DNA of 64,000 nt from Escherichia coli. GTDB taxonomy: Bacteria; Pseudomonadota; Gammaproteobacteria; Enterobacterales; Enterobacteriaceae. Position 1 is the first letter of the stretch; the number at the start of each line of letters is the position of its first letter. The notes under the pieces are model-generated. The model saw nothing but the letters and a program-made list of their open reading frames with translations, was not told the DNA's origin and ran no database searches. The DNA is taken from assembly GCF_050320075.1 (NCBI RefSeq), contig NZ_CP190018.1; one strand, given 5' to 3'. Below, in pieces: positions 4,102 to 15,050 of the stretch. The position numbers and the translations under genes were made by a program.

Positions 4102-6693
4102 ATGCATCAATCTGGTTCTGTTTCTCTTTGTCGTTCCGCAATATCTGTTCTGGTGGCTACAGCGTTATATTCACCCATAGCATTGGCATCAACAGTTGAG
4201 TATGGTGAGACAGTTGATGGTGTTGTCCTGGAAAAAGATATCCAGCTGGTTTATGGGACCGCCAATAATACGAAAATCAATCCTGGCGGAGAACAGCATA
4301 TTAAAGAATTTGGTATAAGTAGTAATACTGAAATTAACGGCGGGTATCAGTACATTGAAATGAATGGCACCGCAGAATACTCAATATTAAATGATGGTTA
4401 TCAAATTGTTCAAATGGGTGGTGCGGCAAACCAGACTACCCTCAATAATGGTGTGTTACAGGTTTATGGCGCAGCGAATGAACCTACGATTAAAGGCGGG
4501 CGCTTAATTATTGAAAAAGATGGGATTACCGTCTTTGCCGCTATCGAAAAGGGAGGATTACTGGAGGTTAAAGAGGGGGGATTAGCATTTGCGGTAGATC
4601 AGAAAGCCGGCGGTGCGATTAAAACAACCACCCGGGCCATGGAGGTATTCGGAACAAACCGTCTCGGTCAGTTCGATATCAAGGATGGTATTGCTAATAA
4701 TATGCTGTTGGAAAACGGCGGAAGTTTGCGAGTTGAAGAAAATGACTTCGCTTATAATACCACTGTGGATAGTGGCGGCTTACTGGAGGTTATGGATGGC
4801 GGGACTGCAACTGGCGTTGATAAAAAAGCAGGCGGAAAATTAATTGTCTCAACGAATGCGCTGGAAGTGAGTGGTACAAACAGTAAAGGCCAATTTAGTA
4901 TAAAAGATGGTGTGTCAAAAAATTATGAACTGGATGATGGTTCCGGGCTCATTGTTATGGAGGACACGCAGGCCATTGATACTATCCTTGATGAGCATGC
5001 CACTATGCAATCGCTGGGAAAGGATACTGGTACGAGAGTGCAGGCAAATGCGGTATATGATCTCGGTCGATCAGATCAGAATGGAAGTATCACGTATTCC
5101 TCAAAAGCCATCTCTGAAAATATGGTTATCAACAATGGCCGCGCTAACGTCTGGGCTGGCACAATGGTTAACGTTTCAGTCAGAGGGAATGATGGCATTC
5201 TTGAGGTCATGAAGCCGCAAATAAATTATGCGCCCGCAATGTTGGTGGGTAAGGTAGTGGTTTCTGATAGCGCTTCTTTTAGAACGCATGGTGCCGTGGA
5301 TACCAGCAAAGCGGATGTTTCGCTCGAAAATAGCGCATGGACCATCATTGCCGATATCACTACGACGAACCAAAACACTCGCCTCAACTTAGCCAACCTT
5401 GCGATGTCTGGCGCAAATGTGATTATGATGGCTGAGCCAGTGACTCGTTCATCTGTGACGGCAAGTGCGGAAAATTTCATTACGTTGACCACCAATACCC
5501 TGTCGGGAAATGGCAATTTTTATATGCGTACCGATATGGCTAATCATCAGAGCGATCAGCTCAACGTCACCGGTCAGGCAACAGGTGATTTCAAAATATT
5601 CGTGACGGACACCGGTGCCAGCCCGGCAGCAGGAGATAGCCTTACACTGGTAACAACGGGCGGCGGTGATGCTGCATTTACGTTGGGCAATGCCGGAGGC
5701 GTTGTTGATATCGGTACGTATGAATATACCTTGCTGGATAATGGCAACCATAGCTGGAGCCTCGCAGAGAATCGCGCGCAAATTACCCCTTCAACCACTG
5801 ATGTGCTGAACATGGCAGCAGCACAACCGCTGGTATTTGATGCAGAACTGGACACCGTGCGTGAGCGTCTTGGTAGCGTAAAAGGCGTTAGTTACGATAC
5901 GGCGATGTGGAGTTCGGCAATTAACACCCGCAACAACGTGACCACTGATGCGGGAGCTGGCTTTGAGCAAACATTGACGGGCCTGACGCTCGGTATCGAT
6001 AGCCGTTTCTCCCGTGAAGAAAGCAGCACAATTCGCGGCTTGTTCTTTGGTTACTCTCATTCTGATATTGGTTTTGATCGCGGCGGCAAAGGTAATATCG
6101 ATAGCTACACCCTGGGGGCTTATGCCGGTTGGGAGCATCAGAACGGTGCCTATGTTGATGGAGTGGTGAAAGTTGACCGTTTTGCCAACACCATCCATGG
6201 CAAGATGAGTAATGGAGCAACAGCGTTTGGCGATTACAATAGTAACGGCGCGGGTGCTCATGTCGAGAGCGGGTTCCGTTGGGTTGACGGATTGTGGAGT
6301 GTTAGACCCTATCTGGCCTTTACCGGCTTTACCACAGATGGTCAGGACTACACGTTATCAAATGGCATGCGCGCGGATGTGGGAAATACCCGGATATTAC
6401 GCGCTGAAGCGGGAACGGCGGTAAGCTATCACATGGACCTGCAAAACGGTACGACGTTGGAACCCTGGCTGAAAGCCGCCGTGCGTCAGGAATACGCCGA
6501 TTCTAACCAGGTGAAAGTTAATGACGATGGCAAATTTAATAATGATGTGGCTGGAACCCGTGGCGTTTATCAGGCTGGGATAAGGTCATCGTTTACCCCG
6601 ACGTTAAGCGGTCATTTGTCAGTCAGTTATGGCAATGGCGCAGGGGTAGAATCGCCGTGGAATATTCAGGCGGGTGTGGTCTGGACGTTCTGA
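4102..6693 (+). CDS. yejO: Autotransporter (type Va) outer membrane protein, intact 863 aa
   Basis: N-terminal signal peptide, long Gly/Thr/Asn-rich repetitive passenger, C-terminal beta-barrel ending in WTF; SD-like AGGATGA upstream of the ATG. Confidence 0.75.
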   Translation: MHQSGSVSLCRSAISVLVATALYSPIALASTVEYGETVDGVVLEKDIQLVYGTANNTKINPGGEQHIKEFGISSNTEINGGYQYIEMNGTAEYSILNDGYQIVQMGGAANQTTLNNGVLQVYGAANEPTIKGGRLIIEKDGITVFAAIEKGGLLEVKEGGLAFAVDQKAGGAIKTTTRAMEVFGTNRLGQFDIKDGIANNMLLENGGSLRVEENDFAYNTTVDSGGLLEVMDGGTATGVDKKAGGKLIVSTNALEVSGTNSKGQFSIKDGVSKNYELDDGSGLIVMEDTQAIDTILDEHATMQSLGKDTGTRVQANAVYDLGRSDQNGSITYSSKAISENMVINNGRANVWAGTMVNVSVRGNDGILEVMKPQINYAPAMLVGKVVVSDSASFRTHGAVDTSKADVSLENSAWTIIADITTTNQNTRLNLANLAMSGANVIMMAEPVTRSSVTASAENFITLTTNTLSGNGNFYMRTDMANHQSDQLNVTGQATGDFKIFVTDTGASPAAGDSLTLVTTGGGDAAFTLGNAGGVVDIGTYEYTLLDNGNHSWSLAENRAQITPSTTDVLNMAAAQPLVFDAELDTVRERLGSVKGVSYDTAMWSSAINTRNNVTTDAGAGFEQTLTGLTLGIDSRFSREESSTIRGLFFGYSHSDIGFDRGGKGNIDSYTLGAYAGWEHQNGAYVDGVVKVDRFANTIHGKMSNGATAFGDYNSNGAGAHVESGFRWVDGLWSVRPYLAFTGFTTDGQDYTLSNGMRADVGNTRILRAEAGTAVSYHMDLQNGTTLEPWLKAAVRQEYADSNQVKVNDDGKFNNDVAGTRGVYQAGIRSSFTPTLSGHLSVSYGNGAGVESPWNIQAGVVWTF

Positions 6694-6755
6694 TAACAGA
6701 AAATAAACAGGCCGTGATGTGTCGCGGTCTGTTTATCGAATTAAATGCAGATATA

Positions 6756-6788
6756 AAAAAACCAACCGTAAAGGTTGGTTTTTTTTGG
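6756..6788. terminator. Bidirectional intrinsic terminator (ACCAACC-GTAAA-GGTTGGT flanked by A-run and T-run)
   Basis: Perfect 7-bp stem with A7 upstream and T8 downstream; directly followed by a degenerate copy of the tRNA-Pro 3' end, so it likely marks the island's right junction. Confidence 0.6.
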
Positions 6789-7162
6789 GATTTTTGGCAC
6801 GAGAGTAGTTTAATTGAGCCTGTAACTGTATGATTTTAAAGATGTAGATTAATTGAGTTTTGAAATCGTATATCCAAACGTATAACTAAAATGATTTGCT
6901 GCAAAAATGTACAGCTTTAACCGTTATCATTTTCCGGCTATTCGCTATGAAGCTGGCTGGTGGATAAGCACGGATAACCTGACATCTACAGCCGCCTTAA
7001 AAGCTGAACCCGACAAGCATATCGGCATCATGCCCACCAGCGTGACGCATTTTTTTAATTGCGCGGGCGTAAAAATTTGACGGGGCGGACAGTTCCATAA
7101 GTAATGGATTGCAGGAATTTCGCCCCCCCTCCTGAATGCAATTTTTCGTATATATATACAAA

Positions 7163-7290
7163 ACCACCCGTCCCACCTGTCCCGCCTGTCCCACTGGCAC
7201 CTAACAAATTGATTTTGTTAGAAATAAATTAGGTAAGGTAGGACAAGTCCAGGCTGTTTTGGGACAAGTTGGGGGGGAGGTGGGACAAGT
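7163..7290. repeat. Iteron block 1: three GTCCC units at ~10-bp spacing, 8-bp palindrome CTAACAAA-N5-TTTGTTAG, three GGGACAAGT units at ~21-bp spacing
   Basis: Read directly: TCCCACCTGTCCCGCCTGTCCCA at 7169-7194; palindrome at 7201-7221; G(G)GACAAGT at 7241, 7261, 7282. Confidence 0.6.
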
Positions 7291-7824
7291 CGAGCGAGTG
7301 AATCAAGCCGTGTTAGCGCGGTAAAGCGACAGTGCCGCCGCAATTTTGCGTTGTCGGGAGGCCACCGTAACAGCCACCATACGCGCACAATCTTCGGTGG
7401 TAACGCAATCCAGACGTGCGCAACATCCCCAGATAGGAAATCATTACCTAGCACAGCTAATTGCGCCAGAATCGATTACAGCGCGTTTCTGTGGCATTCA
7501 AGAACGGCTATCACTAGTGTATTGATATGTAATCCGCATATGAGTTTAAGCAACAAAATGATCCCCTTTCGAAAAAGGCACTAACCGTTTTTTCCGAAAT
7601 GATCCGTTGGTGATTTTGTAACTTATTGTTTTGTAGATGTAATTTTAAACTTGATAGGGTTATAAATAGGGGGCGTTTTTGTCAAGAATTGCAAATAATG
7701 CTCGTTTATTGTTCTTTGTTTGTTTGTTTTCTGTTCGTTGATGGGGGATCATTTTGCACTTTTTGGGGGATCATTTCGGAGGGGGGGGGCTGGCAACACG
7801 CCAGCACCCTCGATGCGTTTGTTT

Positions 7825-8034
7825 TTAGCAGTACTCCCAGTCTGTGGCTAGTAGGCTCTCAGGAGATAGCGTAACGCTATCCTCTGTGACGGGATTCAAC
7901 GCAATCAAATCGTTTCCGCGCCGTTCGAGAAAGACGATGTACGGAAGATGCCAGGCACTGCGGCGAGCTGGCACGCGTCGGCCTGGCTGCAACTTGTCGA
8001 GAATATCCACCAGCGAAACGTTCATGTGATTCAA
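7825..8034 (-). CDS. Hypothetical small protein (69 aa with TTG start; 66 aa from internal ATG)
   Basis: ORF with AGGAG about 5 nt upstream of the TTG; last gene of the ssb-finO-perC cluster; no recognisable family. Confidence 0.35.
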   Translation of the reverse strand: MNHMNVSLVDILDKLQPGRRVPARRSAWHLPYIVFLERRGNDLIALNPVTEDSVTLSPESLLATDWEYC

Positions 8035-8090
8035 AAAACTCCTGAAACGCTCTACAACTCAATAACACAAAAAATAATGCAGAACTGCCA

Positions 8091-8375
8091 CTATAAAACC
8101 TTGTCTGTCTGGTAGTTCCGCCAGACAGATTTTGCGATTTCTATCCCCATATCCGCCTGTGTGCGGTGTGCTGCCTCTCTCAAGCTCCCGAAATTATCCA
8201 GCATGACGGGCGAACGTGCTGCCTTGTGGATACATTTCGCGCGACGCTTTACTGCCTGTTCGCGCTCCTTATCGGTGTTCACCTGTTGCATGACCTCAGC
8301 CCATCGGGCCGCCGCTCTCCGGTACAGGCCTTTAGCCTCCAGATCTTCCGCTTTGCTGTCGTGAATCATACTCAT
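8091..8375 (-). CDS. PerC-family transcriptional activator-like protein (94 aa)
   Basis: Motif EDLEAKGLYRRAAARWAEV resembles the PerC family signature; start ATG overlaps stop of upstream gene (ATGA coupling). Confidence 0.5.
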   Translation of the reverse strand: MSMIHDSKAEDLEAKGLYRRAAARWAEVMQQVNTDKEREQAVKRRAKCIHKAARSPVMLDNFGSLREAAHRTQADMGIEIAKSVWRNYQTDKVL

Positions 8376-8908
8376 ACGCCAGCTTGCTCCTTGTTCGACT
8401 TACGTTTGCGCTTCTCTTTCAGTGCCATCAGTCGTGCTTCCGCGTCCTGCTGTTCCTGTTGTGTCACCTCGCCGCATGGCTGGCTATTCAGATCGTAACG
8501 CACGCCACCAGCCATTAAGGCACGGTAATAACGCGGAGAATGAGCATAAGATGCTAGCGCCGCACGTAATGCCCCTGACCCAAAAGCCAGCGCCCTGACG
8601 GCAATATCCTGTATCAGGTCTTCAAATATTCCTACCTTAAGCGGCTTCGGTGATTCCAGGCTGAATAATTCAGGCCATAGTTCAATAAGACGGTTAACGC
8701 GCCTGCGGTTTTTGCCCTGGCGTTTGGTCATATGCCGCCACGGTGTCGCCCCTGTGGGCTTCTGTTTGCGGCTCTGCTGTGCGTTCTGATTGCCGGGTAT
8801 CACTTTATGCGCTGATGTGGTTTTATCCTGCTGCTGTGTCGTCTGTGTCTTTTTCTGTGGTATGCCGTAAATGCCTTTCGGTTTTCTGCTAATAGTCAGT
8901 GTAGTCAT
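8372..8908 (-). CDS. ProQ/FinO-domain RNA-binding protein (178 aa) with basic low-complexity N-terminal extension
   Basis: C-terminal two thirds align by eye with E. coli ProQ N-terminal domain (PLKVGIFEDL..., LRAAL.SY..S.RY...GG.RYDL...PCGE). Confidence 0.6.
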   Translation of the reverse strand: MTTLTISRKPKGIYGIPQKKTQTTQQQDKTTSAHKVIPGNQNAQQSRKQKPTGATPWRHMTKRQGKNRRRVNRLIELWPELFSLESPKPLKVGIFEDLIQDIAVRALAFGSGALRAALASYAHSPRYYRALMAGGVRYDLNSQPCGEVTQQEQQDAEARLMALKEKRKRKSNKEQAGV

Positions 8909-8943
8909 TATTTGTTAACCTCTGTTAGTGAATCCACTGGCAG

Positions 8944-9369
8944 TTAAAATGGTATTTCGTCCTCATACGGGTCATCCTGCTGGCCCGTCTGCTGCTTTGT
9001 TCTGTTCAGTGCGTCAGTAGCCTGCCCTTGCTGTCCTTTCCTGCCTCCTGGTCGCACGGTTCGCGCACTGATTACGCTGCCTGCGATGACCTGCCAGCCC
9101 TGCCGCATTTCCCCGTTCTGGTCTGTCCACTGGCTTATCTGCATGTTACCCGCCACGCTCACCAGTTCGCCTTTCTGGTGTTTTGCCAGTGCATCGGCCT
9201 GTCTGCCAAACGCCAGGACGGATAACCACATCGTCGCTGTTCCGTCATATGCCTGACTGCACGGAAGGGGAACAGCCATACTCACCAGCGCCATTGGTGT
9301 TCCCTTGCTGGTGGTTTTTAACTGCGGGTCAGCCACCAACCGCCCGTAAGCTGATATTTGTGCCGTCAT
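8944..9369 (-). CDS. ssb: Single-stranded DNA-binding protein (SSB-like, 141 aa)
   Basis: OB-fold pattern similar to E. coli SSB (W..V.AFG, WTDQNG) and acidic C-terminal tail EDEIPF (cf. DDDIPF). Confidence 0.6.
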   Translation of the reverse strand: MTAQISAYGRLVADPQLKTTSKGTPMALVSMAVPLPCSQAYDGTATMWLSVLAFGRQADALAKHQKGELVSVAGNMQISQWTDQNGEMRQGWQVIAGSVISARTVRPGGRKGQQGQATDALNRTKQQTGQQDDPYEDEIPF

Positions 9370-9444
9370 ATTGTCTGCTCTCCGGTTTTAAATGTTGGTT
9401 GGATTTTTAATGTCCACCAGCCAGGCAAAAAATAACGCCTGCTG

Positions 9445-9580
9445 ACTTGTCCCAAAATGCTCCTAACTTGTCCCAAAATCACCTTAACTTGTCCCGCTCT
9501 TGTCCCACTTTTTCTGATATTACCCAATATAATTCAGTATGTTATGTGTGTTTCTCACAGGTTGGGACAGGTGGGACAAG
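9445..9580. repeat. Iteron block 2: four ACTTGTCCC units (~21-bp spacing) plus GGGACAGGTGGGACAAG; inverted copy of block 1
   Basis: ACTTGTCCC at 9445, 9466, 9487; TTGTCCC at 9500; GGGACAGGTGGGA at 9564-9576 is the exact reverse complement of TCCCACCTGTCCC in block 1. Confidence 0.6.
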
Positions 9581-9605
9581 AGTCTTTAAACCTACACGCG
9601 AGAGA

Positions 9606-11741
9606 TTAACCACCTTCATCATCATGATCCTGTGCAAGTAAAAGGCCGTACACCCTTAGTCGTGCCCCCTTCATGTGCTTAAGACGTGGTGTTCTGATTT
9701 GCCATCCTTCCCCGCTGGCTGGCTTTTTCAGCATTCCGGCTTCGTGAAGGGCTCTTGCTACGGCATCCTTGTTAAATCCCTTCGCCACATGCGATTTAAA
9801 TGGCTCCGGCAGGACGTAAAACAAAACAGGCTCACCGTAACGCCCCTCGCTTTCCCTGTAGCCGTACAGTTCTGAAATCGGCAGGCTTGCAGGGTCATAA
9901 TTGACAGGCGCAAACCTGCTCATGCCGTAGGCAGTAAGAAATGCCTCTGCCTGTTCAATAATCTGCCTGTGTTCCTTGTTACCCGTGCCGAACTCCTTCA
10001 CCCAGGCATTAAAGTTATGCTGAATGGCATCACAGCACGTCTGAACATTCCAGCCCGTAACATGACCGGACAGCACAAGCGCGGCCTCCAGTATGGCGAA
10101 TCGTTCCCCTACGCGATGAACCTGTTCGCCGTAGCTCTCCGGTATTAGGTTGCGCCACCGTTCACGGCACGCCCTTACCGTGTCCTTAGCCTCCTGCTGG
10201 TGGGCTGCCAGCCATTTAACCCATTCACGACCCGCCGCCCCGTGGTTTTCTGTCCAGGCGGCTTTTAACGCGTCTGCGTGCGCCTTTCCTGTGCTGTATT
10301 CGTGAAACTGCGTAGACTTCTCCATCGGCACGTTAAGCAACCTGACAAGCTGCCCCGCCTTGACTTTTATCCCCTCACTTTTGAGGAATGTTTCAACATC
10401 CATTTCTCCGGTACTGATCGCCACCGTGCGCCAGTGTTTTATCTCCCGGTTGCCGCCGTCCTTCGCCCCCTGTAATTTCCCGGAACCGTTAAACAGCGTA
10501 TAGGCTGACGTGGACACCTCCCGCGCGTTTCCGGCCTGGCCTATTTCATCCAGGGGTAACAGCCCGTCGTTGTGCGCCTCTGCCTCGTTAGCGATACCTA
10601 ACGCTGTGCCGTACCAGGTCAGCCGTTGCGCGTCCGGCTCTCCCCATAAACTTGATGCGATGTTCTGTGTGGTGGTTTTCCCTGCCGATGATTGTTCGAA
10701 AAGATGTACCCCGAAGCCGTCAGCGCCCACCAGCCCGATTAATGGTGCTGATAACGATACCGCCACACCCAGCATCATGGACGGATTACCACCAGCCAGT
10801 CGCGCCACTGTATCGCGCCAGCCCTCTGTCGTTCCTGCTACGGAATAACCATTAACGGCAGCCGTTTTTCCGGTAAACAGGATCGGTTTTTCAGACTCAC
10901 CAATGACTGAACCGTCCGGCATGATGTACGCGCCAAAATGCCACCCCGTTGTTGTGCTTAACTGCCATTCCTCATGGTTTCCGTTTAACTGCATCCAGTC
11001 AGCCAGGATAGCCCTGTATTTGCCGTTGGTTGTCACATTGAGTCCGTGGTCTTTCAGCAGCCGCCAGCCGTCACGGTCGCCAATGCCACCGCACGGGATC
11101 GCCATTGTGATGACTTCATGATTTGCTAATTTTTTCCAGCGCATCACGCGGTAATGCTCTTTACCGATCGTTCCCGTTCCCAGTAGTTCAAGCGGGGAAC
11201 ATAACCACGCCTCAGGCCGGATAATTTCGCCTGACTGTTTGTCAACTTTGGGCGTTACCCAGAAAACACCATCGGCGCGACTTTCAACGCGGGGTTTTAA
11301 TTCATCATCGCCCTGGCTTTCTGTGATTTTTTTCTTTAAGGGCAACACCAGACTTTCCCCGCGCTCGTATTCGTCTTTGAGGCGAGGCAACTGGTCGGAT
11401 AAATCCGCCGGGCTGGTGTCAGTTATCCCCGCATATTCGTATACGGTCTTCACGCCAGCCACAGCCAGCAATGTGACGATCTGTGTAAGGCTACGTTCAG
11501 TGATGTGCCCTGCGCGGTAAACACGCACACACTGACGGCTATCATCAATAATCTGATAACCGGTAATATCTTTCAGGTGTTCATCTGACAGAACGACAGG
11601 CGGCACATTGTCGGCGGCAATATGCTTACCTGCCCATTCCTGCCACTCTTTCGCATGGCTCCACGCATCACTACCCGCAAAAATGATAACCTCCGTCATT
11701 TTGTCGGCTGGCTGGTGCTTTAAGTTCGGTGCGCGTTTCAT
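9606..11741 (-). CDS. Replicative primase-helicase (TOPRIM-like N-terminus plus P-loop NTPase, 711 aa)
   Basis: Walker A-like SSAGKTT, large size, position downstream of int/alpA as in P4 alpha-type and PICI pri-rep genes; start overlaps upstream small ORF. Confidence 0.75.
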   Translation of the reverse strand: MKRAPNLKHQPADKMTEVIIFAGSDAWSHAKEWQEWAGKHIAADNVPPVVLSDEHLKDITGYQIIDDSRQCVRVYRAGHITERSLTQIVTLLAVAGVKTVYEYAGITDTSPADLSDQLPRLKDEYERGESLVLPLKKKITESQGDDELKPRVESRADGVFWVTPKVDKQSGEIIRPEAWLCSPLELLGTGTIGKEHYRVMRWKKLANHEVITMAIPCGGIGDRDGWRLLKDHGLNVTTNGKYRAILADWMQLNGNHEEWQLSTTTGWHFGAYIMPDGSVIGESEKPILFTGKTAAVNGYSVAGTTEGWRDTVARLAGGNPSMMLGVAVSLSAPLIGLVGADGFGVHLFEQSSAGKTTTQNIASSLWGEPDAQRLTWYGTALGIANEAEAHNDGLLPLDEIGQAGNAREVSTSAYTLFNGSGKLQGAKDGGNREIKHWRTVAISTGEMDVETFLKSEGIKVKAGQLVRLLNVPMEKSTQFHEYSTGKAHADALKAAWTENHGAAGREWVKWLAAHQQEAKDTVRACRERWRNLIPESYGEQVHRVGERFAILEAALVLSGHVTGWNVQTCCDAIQHNFNAWVKEFGTGNKEHRQIIEQAEAFLTAYGMSRFAPVNYDPASLPISELYGYRESEGRYGEPVLFYVLPEPFKSHVAKGFNKDAVARALHEAGMLKKPASGEGWQIRTPRLKHMKGARLRVYGLLLAQDHDDEGG

Positions 11742-12025
11742 TTCTTGCCCCCAGTAACCAGCATTTCGCGGATTTTGCGGATATATCTTGCTGCACGGTT
11801 CTGATTTACGGTTTCACGATGATCCACCAGCGTAAAATCACGCTGGAACTGATAAACAGGCATCACGCAGTCATATTCGTATCCTTCACGGCGGTAGGTC
11901 ATGCGTCGTTCACTCACGCCCTTAATCATTACCGTGCTGCCGTATTTATCGCGGTAAATATCGCCGTGCATGAATTCAGGACGAGTTTTACCGCTGGCAG
12001 TAAAGCCAGAATTTTTTGCTTTCAT
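11738..12025 (-). CDS. Hypothetical protein (95 aa), translationally coupled to primase-helicase
   Basis: ORF stop overlaps primase start codon; coding-like composition; no family recognised. Confidence 0.45.
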   Translation of the reverse strand: MKAKNSGFTASGKTRPEFMHGDIYRDKYGSTVMIKGVSERRMTYRREGYEYDCVMPVYQFQRDFTLVDHRETVNQNRAARYIRKIREMLVTGGKK

Positions 12026-12064
12026 TTATCGAATTACGTTTTTGTTAAAGCTGTATTAATGAGA

Positions 12065-12250
12065 TTAATGAACTGTCGCCACTTCAATTACGGCACGGAT
12101 CATCACCTGCGTGAACCCACAGCCGATTAACTCTTCTTTCAATATTGCGATAGCTGCATTAACGCTGGTGGCGTTCACGTTTTGCTGATTATCAATAACG
12201 TGGCCTTGATGATTTACAGCGCGTGCGGTTATCTGAAATCGCTTAAGCAT
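12065..12250 (-). CDS. Hypothetical small protein (61 aa)
   Basis: ORF preceded by GGGGTGAGG SD-like sequence; start overlaps stop of upstream small ORF. Confidence 0.4.
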   Translation of the reverse strand: MLKRFQITARAVNHQGHVIDNQQNVNATSVNAAIAILKEELIGCGFTQVMIRAVIEVATVH

Positions 12251-12431
12251 GCCTCACCCCCTGACGAATACGGGCAGCGAATACAGCAACACAGCCGGAC
12301 GGGCAACAGTTACGCGCTTCTCGTTCGGTTGATGCCTCGACGTGAACAATACGGGAATCAGTCGGATTAAAGATGACAAAGCGCCAGATAAATGTGTTTT
12401 GAGAATGTTCGAGGGTAGGGGTAGTAGCCAT
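12243..12431 (-). CDS. Small protein (62 aa), possibly Icd-like (host cell division inhibitor-like) as annotated in P4-like elements
   Basis: Strong SD AGGAGG 7 nt upstream of ATG; FIWRF and FAAR motifs recalled from Icd-like annotations (memory-based, uncertain). Confidence 0.45.
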   Translation of the reverse strand: MATTPTLEHSQNTFIWRFVIFNPTDSRIVHVEASTEREARNCCPSGCVAVFAARIRQGVRHA

Positions 12432-12640
12432 TTGGCAGCCTCCTGTAACGTTGGGATATACCCACCGCCGGAGGTGGTAAGCTCGATGGCGGTGGACTGT
12501 ACAGGGTTACCACAACTGGTGTTACAGGAAACCAGCCTGACCGAAGTCAGCCCCATACAGCCCACCATTGATAAGGCGTGCGCGTGCGCCGATACAAAAA
12601 AAGACGCCTGGCGCGTCTGTATCGCCTGTAACTCCAGCGG
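12432..12640 (-). ncRNA. Candidate structured regulatory RNA / leader (P4 immunity-like seqA-seqB-seqC arrangement)
   Basis: On the minus strand: GTTACAGG (12632-12625), intrinsic terminator, UUCG-tetraloop hairpin (12550-12537), complementary CCTGTAAC (12528-12521), then GTTACAGGAGG (12449-12439) overlapping the SD of the first ORF. Confidence 0.3.
12595..12618 (-). terminator. Intrinsic terminator inside the leader region (AGACGC-loop-GCGTCT followed by T7 on minus strand)
   Basis: 6-bp GC-rich stem, 5-nt loop, run of seven T on the transcribed strand. Confidence 0.5.
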
Positions 12641-13077
12641 GGTGGTAATCCCGACACCCGTTTTATGAGGTGCGCAGGGAGTATATCCCGTTTTCTTGCT
12701 CATGTGGTCGGATGTGTTGAAGGTGTGCCCACCACACAAATCACATTGCTCACCAGCCGGAAATATGGCATTGTTGGCGATGCATTCAAGTTTAATATAT
12801 GCCTTCTGGCGACCCTCTGCGGTCGCCTTTGTTTTATTCGTAAGCAACATATTTCTTTTGTCGTTTAAGCTATGCGATTGTACGTTTCCGTTTAAAACGG
12901 AAGTGCTATTAGTTCAATTAATTCGTTCGTACGGTTTGAACTGAATAATAACATCAGCCATAATTTTTTATGGTTGAACGAAAACCTGCCCCTGTTTGGG
13001 CATTTTTGCCAGTATTCATAATGTTCTCTCTTAATTGTTTTGTTGCTTGATAGTAATCAGGCCAGCGTTAATCACAC

Positions 13078-13269
13078 TTATGCTTCACGAGTTTCTCTCT
13101 CACGTTCTTTCAACCAGGCGAGTACCTCATCTTCATACCAGCCAATGCGACGCAGCCCGATACGGAATCCTTTGGGGAACCCGCCTTTGTTAACCATCTC
13201 CGTTAGGGTCGAATCAGATTTAATGCGTAGCAAGGCCTTTACCTCTGGTCGTAAAAGAATAGCCCTCAT
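13078..13269 (-). CDS. alpA: AlpA-family phage transcriptional regulator / excisionase-like (63 aa)
   Basis: Small HTH protein with LLR..EV......S.ST......G.FP....IG.R.IGW...EV..WL pattern; position between integrase and replication genes. Confidence 0.7.
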   Translation of the reverse strand: MRAILLRPEVKALLRIKSDSTLTEMVNKGGFPKGFRIGLRRIGWYEDEVLAWLKERERETREA

Positions 13270-13474
13270 CCTATTTCTCCTCTGGACAGCAAAATATCGC
13301 TTTTTGAATGAAAATAACGGTAAGTAATGTAATAAGCATACAAATCTATAAAAAAGACAGTCAAGAATTATTTAATAAGAGCTATGTGATTGGTTATTTT
13401 TTAATTTTCTAACATAAAAAGAATTTAAATGTTTCTCAAAATGAGACAGTATTGAGAAAGTAATGAGACACAAA

Positions 13475-13506
13475 TTAGCTCCTAACTGATACCAATTAGG
13501 AGCTAA
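13475..13506. promoter_or_regulatory. Perfect 11-bp inverted repeat TTAGCTCCTAA-N10-TTAGGAGCTAA in the AT-rich int-alpA intergenic region
   Basis: Read directly; lies just downstream of int stop and upstream of alpA promoter region; could be int terminator and/or operator. Confidence 0.35.
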
Positions 13507-13522
13507 TAATTTTTTAAATATT

Positions 13523-14767
13523 TTATTTTATTCCGCGTAATCCTCTGTGCCCGCTGGCGATGGTTGTTCCGGTTGCGGCTGCTTCCACAAAATCACCCCA
13601 CCAGCACATTAACACTTTACGTTTTTCCAGGTAGTTGCTTCGGTTGTATGCCCGTCTAACTTCGTTTGTGTCCACGTGGGCTAGTGCGGCTTCGATCACG
13701 TCAGGTTCAAATCCTTCTTCATTCGCCGCCGTGCTGAATATTGCGCGTAGTCCGTGAGATACCAGCACACCAGCGTAACCCATTCGTCGTAATGCTGCGT
13801 TTGCTGTCTGGCTGCTCATTGATTGCACTGGATTTTTAAGACTTGGGAAAACATGCTCCCTTCGTGCGCTAATCGGCTTCATGGCTTCAAGCACTGCCAT
13901 CGCCTGAGCGCAAAGGGGGATCACATGATCACGGCGCATCTTCATGCGTCCGGCTGGTATCGTCCAGGTTGCCGCCTCAAGGTTGATTTCTTCCCACCGT
14001 GCGGCGGAGGCTTCGGCTGGGCGGGTTGCGGTTAACAACTGCCACTCAATCAGCAATCTGGTTTGCCGTTCTATGCTGGCGATCGATAAATCGTGCATTA
14101 GCTGCGGTAGTTGTTCCGGTCGGATGGTTGGCATGTGCTTTTTGGTGGGGGAAGGGAATGCCTTGCGAACGTTCGCGGCGGTGTTGATGTCAATCAGTCC
14201 ACTGTTGGCAGCAAAATCCATCACTTCATTGATGCGCTGTAAAACGCGTTTCAGTGTTTCCAGGTTGCCACGTGCCTTGATGGGCGTGAGTATCTCAACA
14301 AAGCGGCGAGCGGTGAGAGTATCTATCGGTGTGTTTCCGATATACGGGAATACATATTTCTCTAGCGAGCGCCAGATGTCCTTGATCGTATTGTGGGCGA
14401 GATTCTGGTTTTTTTTCATTTCGTACCACAATGCGGCCACATTTTCGAACGTGTTGCCCTGTCGTCGAGCCTCTGCTTCGAGTTTTTGCCGTTCGTATTC
14501 CTGCGGGTCGGTTCCTGCCGCAATTAACGTCCTGTACTCGCTACGGCGTTTTCTGGCATCAGCCAGGGAGACTTCATCAAGCGAGCCCAAACTAATGATT
14601 GTTCGTTTTTTGTTCGATGGTCGATAGTAGTTGAATCGCCATAGTTTCGAACCAGACGGCTTAATAACGAGAAAAAGCCCGCCGCCATCCTGTAAGGTGT
14701 ATTCTTTTTCCGCTGGTTTAGCTGCTTTGATCTGTGTGGTGGTGAGTGGGGTCGCCTTTCTTGCCAT
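13523..14767 (-). CDS. int: Tyrosine site-specific integrase, P4-type (414 aa)
   Basis: N-terminal arm-binding-like domain (LTTTQIKAAKP...GGGLFLVIKPSGSKLWRF), C-terminal catalytic region with HGLRA and terminal tyrosine region; adjacent to tRNA gene. Confidence 0.85.
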   Translation of the reverse strand: MARKATPLTTTQIKAAKPAEKEYTLQDGGGLFLVIKPSGSKLWRFNYYRPSNKKRTIISLGSLDEVSLADARKRRSEYRTLIAAGTDPQEYERQKLEAEARRQGNTFENVAALWYEMKKNQNLAHNTIKDIWRSLEKYVFPYIGNTPIDTLTARRFVEILTPIKARGNLETLKRVLQRINEVMDFAANSGLIDINTAANVRKAFPSPTKKHMPTIRPEQLPQLMHDLSIASIERQTRLLIEWQLLTATRPAEASAARWEEINLEAATWTIPAGRMKMRRDHVIPLCAQAMAVLEAMKPISARREHVFPSLKNPVQSMSSQTANAALRRMGYAGVLVSHGLRAIFSTAANEEGFEPDVIEAALAHVDTNEVRRAYNRSNYLEKRKVLMCWWGDFVEAAATGTTIASGHRGLRGIK

Positions 14768-14973
14768 ACGTTTATGAATCCACGGGAAAAAACAGGTTCT
14801 AGTTATACGGATTTAGCTATGCGCCAGCCCGTATAACTAAACATATAACTAAAAAAAACGGCTGAAAACCACTGTTACCGTCGAATAACGATGACTAAAA
14901 ACAATAAAAAAACCCGCTATTCAATGAATTAGCGGGCTTATTTCATAAAAACGATAATTAATAATGGGCGATT

Positions 14974-15050
14974 TGGTCGGCACGAGAGGATTTGAACCTC
15001 CGACCCCCGACACCCCATGACGGTGCGCTACCAGGCTGCGCTACGTGCCG
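14974..15050 (-). tRNA. proL: tRNA-Pro (anticodon GGG), 77 nt with encoded CCA
   Basis: Reverse complement reads CGGCACGTAGCGCAGCCTGGTAGCGCACCGTCATGGGGTGTCGGGGGTCGGAGGTTCAAATCCTCTCGTGCCGACCA; cloverleaf with GGG in anticodon loop. Confidence 0.9.

Follow-up and report, generated by a model that had tools for sequence, protein, structure and literature searches.

An inverted repeat between int and alpA of an Escherichia coli proL satellite island as a candidate int terminator that may insulate alpA

In phage lambda, the tI/sib hairpin is located just past int and decides what becomes of the 3' end of the int mRNA. Lambda sib spans attP and is split from int upon integration, and its effect needs N-antiterminated read-through as well as RNase III. 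Gram-negative PICIs follow a four-zone layout, with int-alpA, Bro/immunity RNA, replication and late/accessory zones (PMC10111431). Overexpressing AlpA is enough on its own to induce a PICI, and alpA has to be kept silent as long as no helper phage is present (PMC6092414). The statement in an earlier note on the present DNA that AlpA is the master switch of Gram-negative islands agrees with these reports (PMC6092414, PMC11773190). EcCIMP1 is an experimentally verified E. coli PICI, and an EcCIMP1 alpA-lux fusion (-449 to +50) that covers a hairpin region responds to helper phage (PMC11773190). In P4, cox boxes upstream of vis, an alpA homologue, are the input for induction by the helper: P2 Cox binds at least six boxes with the consensus TTAAA(G/C)NC(A/C), spaced 10–11 bp, and activates the promoter upstream of vis (PMC3936717).

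We analyzed an inverted repeat located between int and alpA in a 64-kb stretch of E. coli DNA (hereafter, the window). Judged from its sequence, the host element is a PICI-type satellite of ∼8.2 kb at tRNA-Pro (proL), for which mobilization by a helper phage is predicted. The island (window positions 6795–14988) runs between two copies of a 10-bp direct repeat (CTCTCGTGCC; 14988..14979 and 6804..6795), and arm-like repeats of the form TTAGTTATA(C/T)G are found near both of its ends (14800–14851 and 6867–6889). The tRNA-Pro(ggg) gene maps to 15050..14974 on the minus strand, and the order on this strand is int, alpA, the isrK and C4 RNAs, an Icd-like gene, DUF4222, a DUF927 primase (11741..9606, minus strand), SSB, a ProQ/FinO-like protein and PerC. 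The int gene (13523..14767, minus strand) encodes a P4-type tyrosine integrase of 414 amino acids, as defined by its open reading frame, by Pfam matches to Phage_integrase, Phage_int_M and Arm-DNA-bind_3, and by the PGAP annotation of an identical genome. The alpA gene (13078..13269, minus strand) encodes a 63-residue Phage_AlpA/HTH_17 regulator, again defined by open reading frame, domain matches and annotation in an identical genome. Rfam places isrK and a C4/CI-type antisense RNA at 12485–12673 on the minus strand, and the Icd-like open reading frame lies past the antisense RNA on the same strand (12243..12431); together they form a predicted P1/P4-style RNA immunity module. The zone order, the lack of capsid and lysis genes, and the insertion at a tRNA gene with flanking direct repeats are those of Gram-negative PICIs. 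An identical copy of the island is present between yejM-proL and yejO in E. coli OSUCMP42NDM, and a search of the accessible literature returned no description of this particular proL island.

Several further elements of the island were recorded. The RNA immunity stretch (12485–12673) is 83% identical to a region found in many Stx-converting lambdoid phages. Iterons (CTTGTCCCA / TGGGACAAG) occur in both orientations at 7190–7290, where they flank an AT-rich stretch, and at 9439–9580; the iteron clusters and the AT-rich stretch are the probable island replication origin, and 21-bp direct repeats are located just past the primase gene. Directly past tRNA-Pro and just inside attL, a GC-rich hairpin with a T7 run (14905–14938, minus strand) appears to be an island-supplied replacement terminator for proL, the native proL terminator (AAAAAAAACCAACCTTTACGGTTGGTTTTTTT) now being found at attR (6755–6785). 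The autotransporter gene yejO (4102–6693), which lies beside attR, is annotated in the identical genome as a pseudogene with an internal stop. Finally, a short GC hairpin (TGCCCAAACAGGGGCA) followed by GGTTTTCGTT (12987–13002) is located on the sense strand, 76 nt past the alpA stop codon; it is terminator-like on both strands and could terminate or attenuate alpA transcription before the immunity RNAs are reached.

The int stop codon (13525..13523) and the alpA ATG (13269) are both on the minus strand. The AT-rich intergenic region of ∼250 bp described in the earlier note measures 253 bp with 26% GC. Within it, an inverted repeat is found exactly where it had been reported (13475–13506), composed of a left half-site TTAGCTCCTAA (13475–13485), a 10-nt spacer CTGATACCAA (13486–13495) and a right half-site TTAGGAGCTAA (13496–13506), and extendable to 12 bp by the flanking bases A13474 and T13507. 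The 10-nt spacer is asymmetric, so that the element is not the perfect 32-bp palindrome it had been called, although we retain the word palindrome for brevity. It was rightly considered unlikely to arise by chance: when the 253-bp int-alpA spacer was shuffled with its dinucleotides preserved, 0.6% of the shuffles contained a perfect inverted repeat of ≥11 bp with half-sites 3–20 nt apart. Inverted repeats of ≥11 bp are present at ∼8 loci in the 64-kb window compared with 0.4 expected, most of them terminator-like, and thus represent a normal, non-random feature of the genome. No second copy of the half-site was found elsewhere in the window.

Other identities for the palindrome were considered and rejected. 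It is not a replication-origin iteron, the island iterons being the unrelated CTTGTCCCA clusters at 9439–9580 and 7190–7290, nor an integrase arm or core site, as the arm-like and core repeats at the island ends have other sequences and the half-site is unique in the window. A dispersed element of the REP, BIME or ERIC type was discarded, since the palindrome is single-copy in 64 kb and the spacer query matched one place per genome in the 67 matched genomes (5426 searched).

The palindrome folds into a hairpin on the minus strand, which is the sense strand for both int and alpA. From the int stop codon, a 15-nt A-rich linker that is nearly invariant in relatives (AAUAUUUAAAAAAUU, 13508..13522) leads into the 5' arm AUUAGCUCCUAA (13496..13507), the 10-nt spacer UUGGUAUCAG (13486..13495), and the 3' arm UUAGGAGCUAAU (13474..13485), all on the minus strand. 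The outer bases of the spacer are paired (U-G, U-A and G-C) and leave a 4-nt loop, and the 12-bp core thereby gains three pairs, one of them G-U, to form a 15-bp stem (-20.9 kcal/mol, z -5.97). The plus-strand fold reaches -17.5 kcal/mol (z -5.36); the sense-strand hairpin is 3.4 kcal/mol more stable because of its G-U pairs, three positions being mismatched on the plus strand. The hairpin begins 15 nt past the int stop codon and is located 204 nt ahead of alpA. It is followed by an interrupted U-rich tail (UUGUGUCUCAUUAC, 13459..13473, minus strand) detected in a terminator scan, which doubles as the first unit of a TCTCA repeat array.

A stable sense-strand stem-loop located a few nucleotides past a stop codon and followed by a U-rich stretch is what the int hairpin shares with intrinsic terminators, and an A-rich stretch precedes it as in many bidirectional terminators. 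Intrinsic terminators have short, GC-rich stems, whereas the int hairpin is long and AU-rich (5 of 15 stem pairs, or 33%, are G-C), owing its stability to stem length, and its U-tract is interrupted and in some alleles poor. The tail right after the stem (UUGUGUCU; longer readout UUGUGUCUCA) has 5 U in 8 positions and scores 2.6–3.2 on a d'Aubenton-Carafa-type scale, which is roughly the top 1–3% of window positions; on the same scale, the proL-side terminator reaches 5.6 and a canonical one from a related island 3.7. The tails of a second group of alleles, referred to as class-2 and defined by the repeats downstream of the hairpin, score 1.8–2.2 (a poor example, UUAAACCG, has 1.8). In the terminator scan, the palindrome was the only terminator-like match on the sense strand of the int-alpA spacer. 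No Rfam match to the hairpin was found, even at E ≤ 10.

The earlier note had offered three options: an int terminator, an operator bound by AlpA or a repressor, and a combination of the two. An int terminator is the best supported of these, given a site 15 nt past the stop codon, on the sense strand and alone in the spacer in being terminator-like, and the operator finds little support. Our preferred reading, for which we judge the case evenly balanced, is that the palindrome is an int 3' stem-loop or terminator insulating alpA; the position, strand and fold of the hairpin and the retention of its core in relatives are direct observations, from which we infer termination and a selected insulating function. 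The int transcript would then carry an RNA hairpin at its 3' end, with the palindrome as the stem, that acts as a factor-independent terminator or at least as a 3'-end-forming, stabilizing stem-loop. Because int and alpA are codirectional and only 253 bp apart, such a hairpin would block read-through from the int promoter into alpA, the product of which sets off excision and replication in satellite islands of this type.

As in lambda tI/sib, the hairpin is found directly beyond int. Unlike lambda sib, it is internal to the island, as located by the att cores at 14988..14979 and 6804..6795, and adjoins int in both states. In this it departs from a sib-type retroregulator, in which the hairpin would lie across attP rather than stay beside int. 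To our knowledge, no antitermination system acts on the satellite int hairpin.

The spacer is carried by 67–70 of 5426 complete E. coli genomes and is also present in Escherichia albertii and in three metagenome contigs; the AlpA protein is indexed in thousands of assemblies and listed in 4127 index blocks. We collected 15 distinct hairpin alleles, found in E. coli, in E. albertii and in metagenomes, and aligned them with MAFFT; all 15 have the 12+10+12 core, and its distance to the int stop codon never changes. Standard pairs are formed by 90.6% of the core cells, compared with 18–56% when the partner is slid by 1–3 columns, and every allele folds strongly (-14.6 to -28.6 kcal/mol). One stem pair is G-C in 10 alleles, A-U in 2 and G-U in 1, and another is U-G in 9, C-G in 4 and U-A in 2. 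The wobble intermediates of both varying pairs (G-U and U-G) sit on the sense strand. At two inner positions of class-2 alleles, the sense strand has A·C where the opposite strand has G-U; the wobble asymmetry thus points to the sense strand at two positions and to the opposite strand at two. Being mixed across alleles, it does not settle which strand matters, and we discarded it as proof of a sense-strand RNA. Five stem pairs are invariant and only one pair is changed on both sides; the covariation score was reached by 47 of 500 shuffles, and there is therefore no significant covariation.

These statistics bear on a second explanation, in which the inverted repeat is a functionless by-product of an unstable 11-bp tract, one unit having been inverted and the arms homogenized by slippage or template switching. 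Compensatory change can be imitated when quasi-palindromes are repaired by template switching, and a covariation that is statistically like that of shuffles would be expected from such an origin, as would the copy number of the arms and of neighboring units, which varies in 11-bp steps among near-identical islands. Yet every allele retains at least one left and at least one right arm in the 12+10+12 register, 15 nt from the int stop codon, and the hairpin is kept while the sequence immediately downstream is replaced outright. With so long an inverted repeat seen in just 0.6% of shuffles, we regard a by-product origin as improbable. The type of hairpin tracks the nearby int 3' polymorphism and not the downstream cassette class; the hairpin thus travels with int, and recombination breakpoints fall just behind it.

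The flanks are conserved across cassette classes, namely int, alpA, the -35 hexamer TTGACT, and the box TTTTATGTTAGAAAA. The core is present in all 15 alleles, and proL islands with an AlpA 72–77% identical have an unrelated spacer. We also examined 37 full-length loci out of 52 distant integrase relatives found; only E. albertii (Int 97% identical) retains the spacer of the palindrome, and the remaining loci are uninformative because alpA is ∼1 kb away or absent.

The hairpin could also function on the plus strand, or in both directions, as a terminator shielding int from antisense transcription that begins in the alpA control region. In this orientation, the fold (-17.5 kcal/mol) runs into UAAUUUUUUAAAUAUUUUAUUUU, a stretch that every allele conserves, and in some class-2 alleles the plus-strand fold is the more stable one. 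The plus-strand tail, however, scores only 1.6–2.3, as two A's part the stem from the U run, and this run is the mere complement of the A-rich linker. No promoter-like site was found upstream on the plus strand within the spacer, and no plus-strand gene or Rfam RNA ends at the hairpin. We thus consider plus-strand or bidirectional termination very unlikely.

The surroundings of the hairpin are less ordinary. Its arms belong to a polymorphic family of 11-bp repeats, which the earlier note had missed. The 3'-arm unit GGAGCCAATTT is found in 1–4 tandem copies (four perfect ones in E. albertii), and the 5'-arm unit TTGGTTCCTAA is present in 1–2 copies. Directly past the hairpin follow three phased 11-bp TCTCA units (GTGTCTCATTA / CTTTCTCAATA / CTGTCTCATTT, 13440..13473, minus strand), and a second inverted repeat, TTTCTCAA-N12-TTGAGAAA (13432..13459), closes the array. 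TRF reports a period of 11 at 13440–13468 in the window allele (2.6 copies) and period-11 arrays of 5.5 copies at locus L003 (701–768) and of 4.0 copies at 100% identity at locus L016. Relatives carry 2, 3, 6 or 7 TCTCA units; all changes in copy number are multiples of 11 bp and thus preserve the helical phase from int to the alpA promoter. In class-2 alleles (L008–L012, L016, L071 and L072), the TCTCA cassette between the hairpin and the -35 hexamer is swapped for 2–4 copies of a 22-bp unit, CCCATTATTTAAAGTCAGAAGA, and whole cassettes are exchanged between otherwise near-identical islands. An identical AlpA (WP_001201666) is found with both cassette classes and with varied arm sequences.

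The 3' arm (13474–13485) also includes a Shine-Dalgarno-like AGGAG, paired with CUCCU, located 7 nt before the GUG of an 11-codon open reading frame. This frame is absent from class-2 alleles and shifted by 11-bp indels, for which reason we rejected it, and the small AGGAG-GUG open reading frame is probably meaningless.

The likely alpA promoter is predicted on the minus strand, with a -35 hexamer TTGACT (13364..13359) that is invariant across all alleles, an 18-nt spacer, and a -10 hexamer TATGCT (13340..13335). The box TTTTATGTTAGAAAA (13405..13419, minus strand) is conserved in all spacer classes, and a class-specific promoter-like site, TTGAGA-17-TATGTT (13439..13411, minus strand), overlaps the second inverted repeat. 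The palindrome is located ∼110–145 bp upstream of the only conserved -35 hexamer and ∼35 bp upstream of the weaker, class-specific candidate promoter. Just upstream of the alpA ribosome-binding site, a TTACCGT motif is common to all families, possibly as a conserved regulatory element.

The repeats allow for a reading at the DNA level, in which the palindrome and the TCTCA units form an array on which a small, oligomerizing DNA-binding protein would land to control the alpA promoter, the candidates being AlpA itself or a Cox/Xis-like inducer from the helper phage. The 11-bp half-sites are 21 bp apart from center to center and would thus present the same face of the helix; this spacing, in whole helical turns as for a dimeric operator, and the 10-nt spacer are invariant in the 15 alleles. 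Direct 11-bp copies of the arms stand in tandem and run into the TCTCA units (2–7 copies), with the copy number and the 10–11-bp phasing of a phased array (≥3–6 repeats); in 5 of 6 alleles, the TT periodicity is strongest at 11 bp (shuffle fractions 0.01–0.10). The tandem duplication of arms of the 11-bp family would be needless for a terminator and argues against one. There is a precedent in the phased 10–11-bp repeats of the P4 PLL promoter, upstream of the AlpA-family gene vis (PMC3936717), where the cox boxes are located at 9176–9205.

The window allele, in contrast to P4 PLL, has no match to the P2 cox-box TTAAA(G/C)NC(A/C), and the binding protein is a candidate only; the proL island is also of the PICI type, with a DUF927-type primase and with no sid, delta or psu among the island open reading frames scanned. 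Exact P2 cox-box matches are found only in the class-2 22-bp units, 41–85 bp upstream of the -35 hexamer; the background rate is 10 matches per 128 kb. Nothing similar to the array was detected in 50,697 phage records or in IMG/VR: an operator shared with phages was rejected, as the palindrome and both array cassettes are unmatched there, and a weak match to phage SEN8 (E 0.009) falls inside an HNH endonuclease gene and was taken as chance. The motif is also absent from attL and attR, to which a directionality factor should bind as well. An operator would be expected to adjoin its promoter, yet the palindrome lies 110–145 bp upstream of the conserved -35 hexamer. The half-sites do not track the regulator either, as the same AlpA (WP_001201666) occurs with TTAGGAGCTAA, TTTGGAGCCAA and TTAGGAACCAA arms and with entirely different downstream arrays. 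The operator for AlpA or a repressor suggested in the earlier note thus lost ground: it would sit ∼110 bp from the -35 hexamer, its half-sites differ at 2–3 of 11 positions under an identical AlpA, and it has no other copy in the island or in phages. Homology of the island AlpA to the Pseudomonas aeruginosa AlpA antiterminator was also discarded, as no PDB sequence match was obtained other than a marginal one to 8c3t ("AlpA family") at E 0.04. We conclude that a landing array is unlikely to account for the palindrome, and return to the int 3' stem-loop.

A hairpin or terminator in the int-alpA spacer is seen in other satellites as well. The proL islands with an AlpA 72–77% identical (L081–L090) have an unrelated int-alpA spacer of 515–565 bp with an 80-residue open reading frame, which ends in a canonical GC-rich terminator 140–165 nt before alpA; two direct copies of GTGGGTAC(C/T)GTTTT are located past this terminator. 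A terminator ahead of the alpA control region in these distant islands suggests a recurring design. EcCIMP1 shares with the proL island the order tRNA, int, alpA, Bro/immunity-RNA zone, primase and PerC. Its spacer in E. coli MP1 holds a 15-bp inverted repeat (AAAGACCGCAATATG-N5-CATATTGTGGTCTTT, positions 2445–2478 of locus L112), 86 nt upstream of alpA, which folds into an AU-rich sense-strand hairpin with one G-U pair (-20.8 kcal/mol, z -4.9) and is contained in the helper-responsive alpA-lux fragment. EcCIMP1 differs in that the sequence is unrelated, the hairpin is located ∼300 nt past int, and no 11-bp arrays are seen. Three unrelated spacers thus each have a strong hairpin or a terminator between int and the alpA control region.

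An int terminator agrees with the position, strand and fold of the hairpin, with its being the only such site in the spacer, with its retention among alleles and linkage to int, and with the recurring design. Our confidence is only moderate, because the stem is AU-rich, the U-tract is interrupted (and poor in class-2 alleles), and the covariation is not significant. A broader proposal, which we regard as quite speculative, is that the stem-loop and the phased 11-bp arrays jointly form a helper-sensing control region of alpA, in which cassette swaps retune inducer specificity. The arrays would then be landing pads for an oligomerizing, helper-encoded Cox/Xis-like protein or, in an alternative form, the hairpin would be a barrier overridden by a helper factor. 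Changes in cassette and copy number would reset which helper phage induces the island, and the class-2 cassettes with exact P2 cox-box matches would be a P2-responsive version.

The palindrome itself is an ordinary feature in a modestly interesting neighborhood. If it is a terminator, its role would be routine, and would explain how alpA can be silent despite a constitutively needed int directly upstream. The 11-bp cassette system is the better lead, as it is located upstream of the satellite master switch, and the 2018 and 2025 ISME J studies did not explain how alpA of Gram-negative PICIs is turned on by helper phages. Its natural variants in cassette and copy number, upstream of an invariant alpA, are ready material for reporter and footprinting work.
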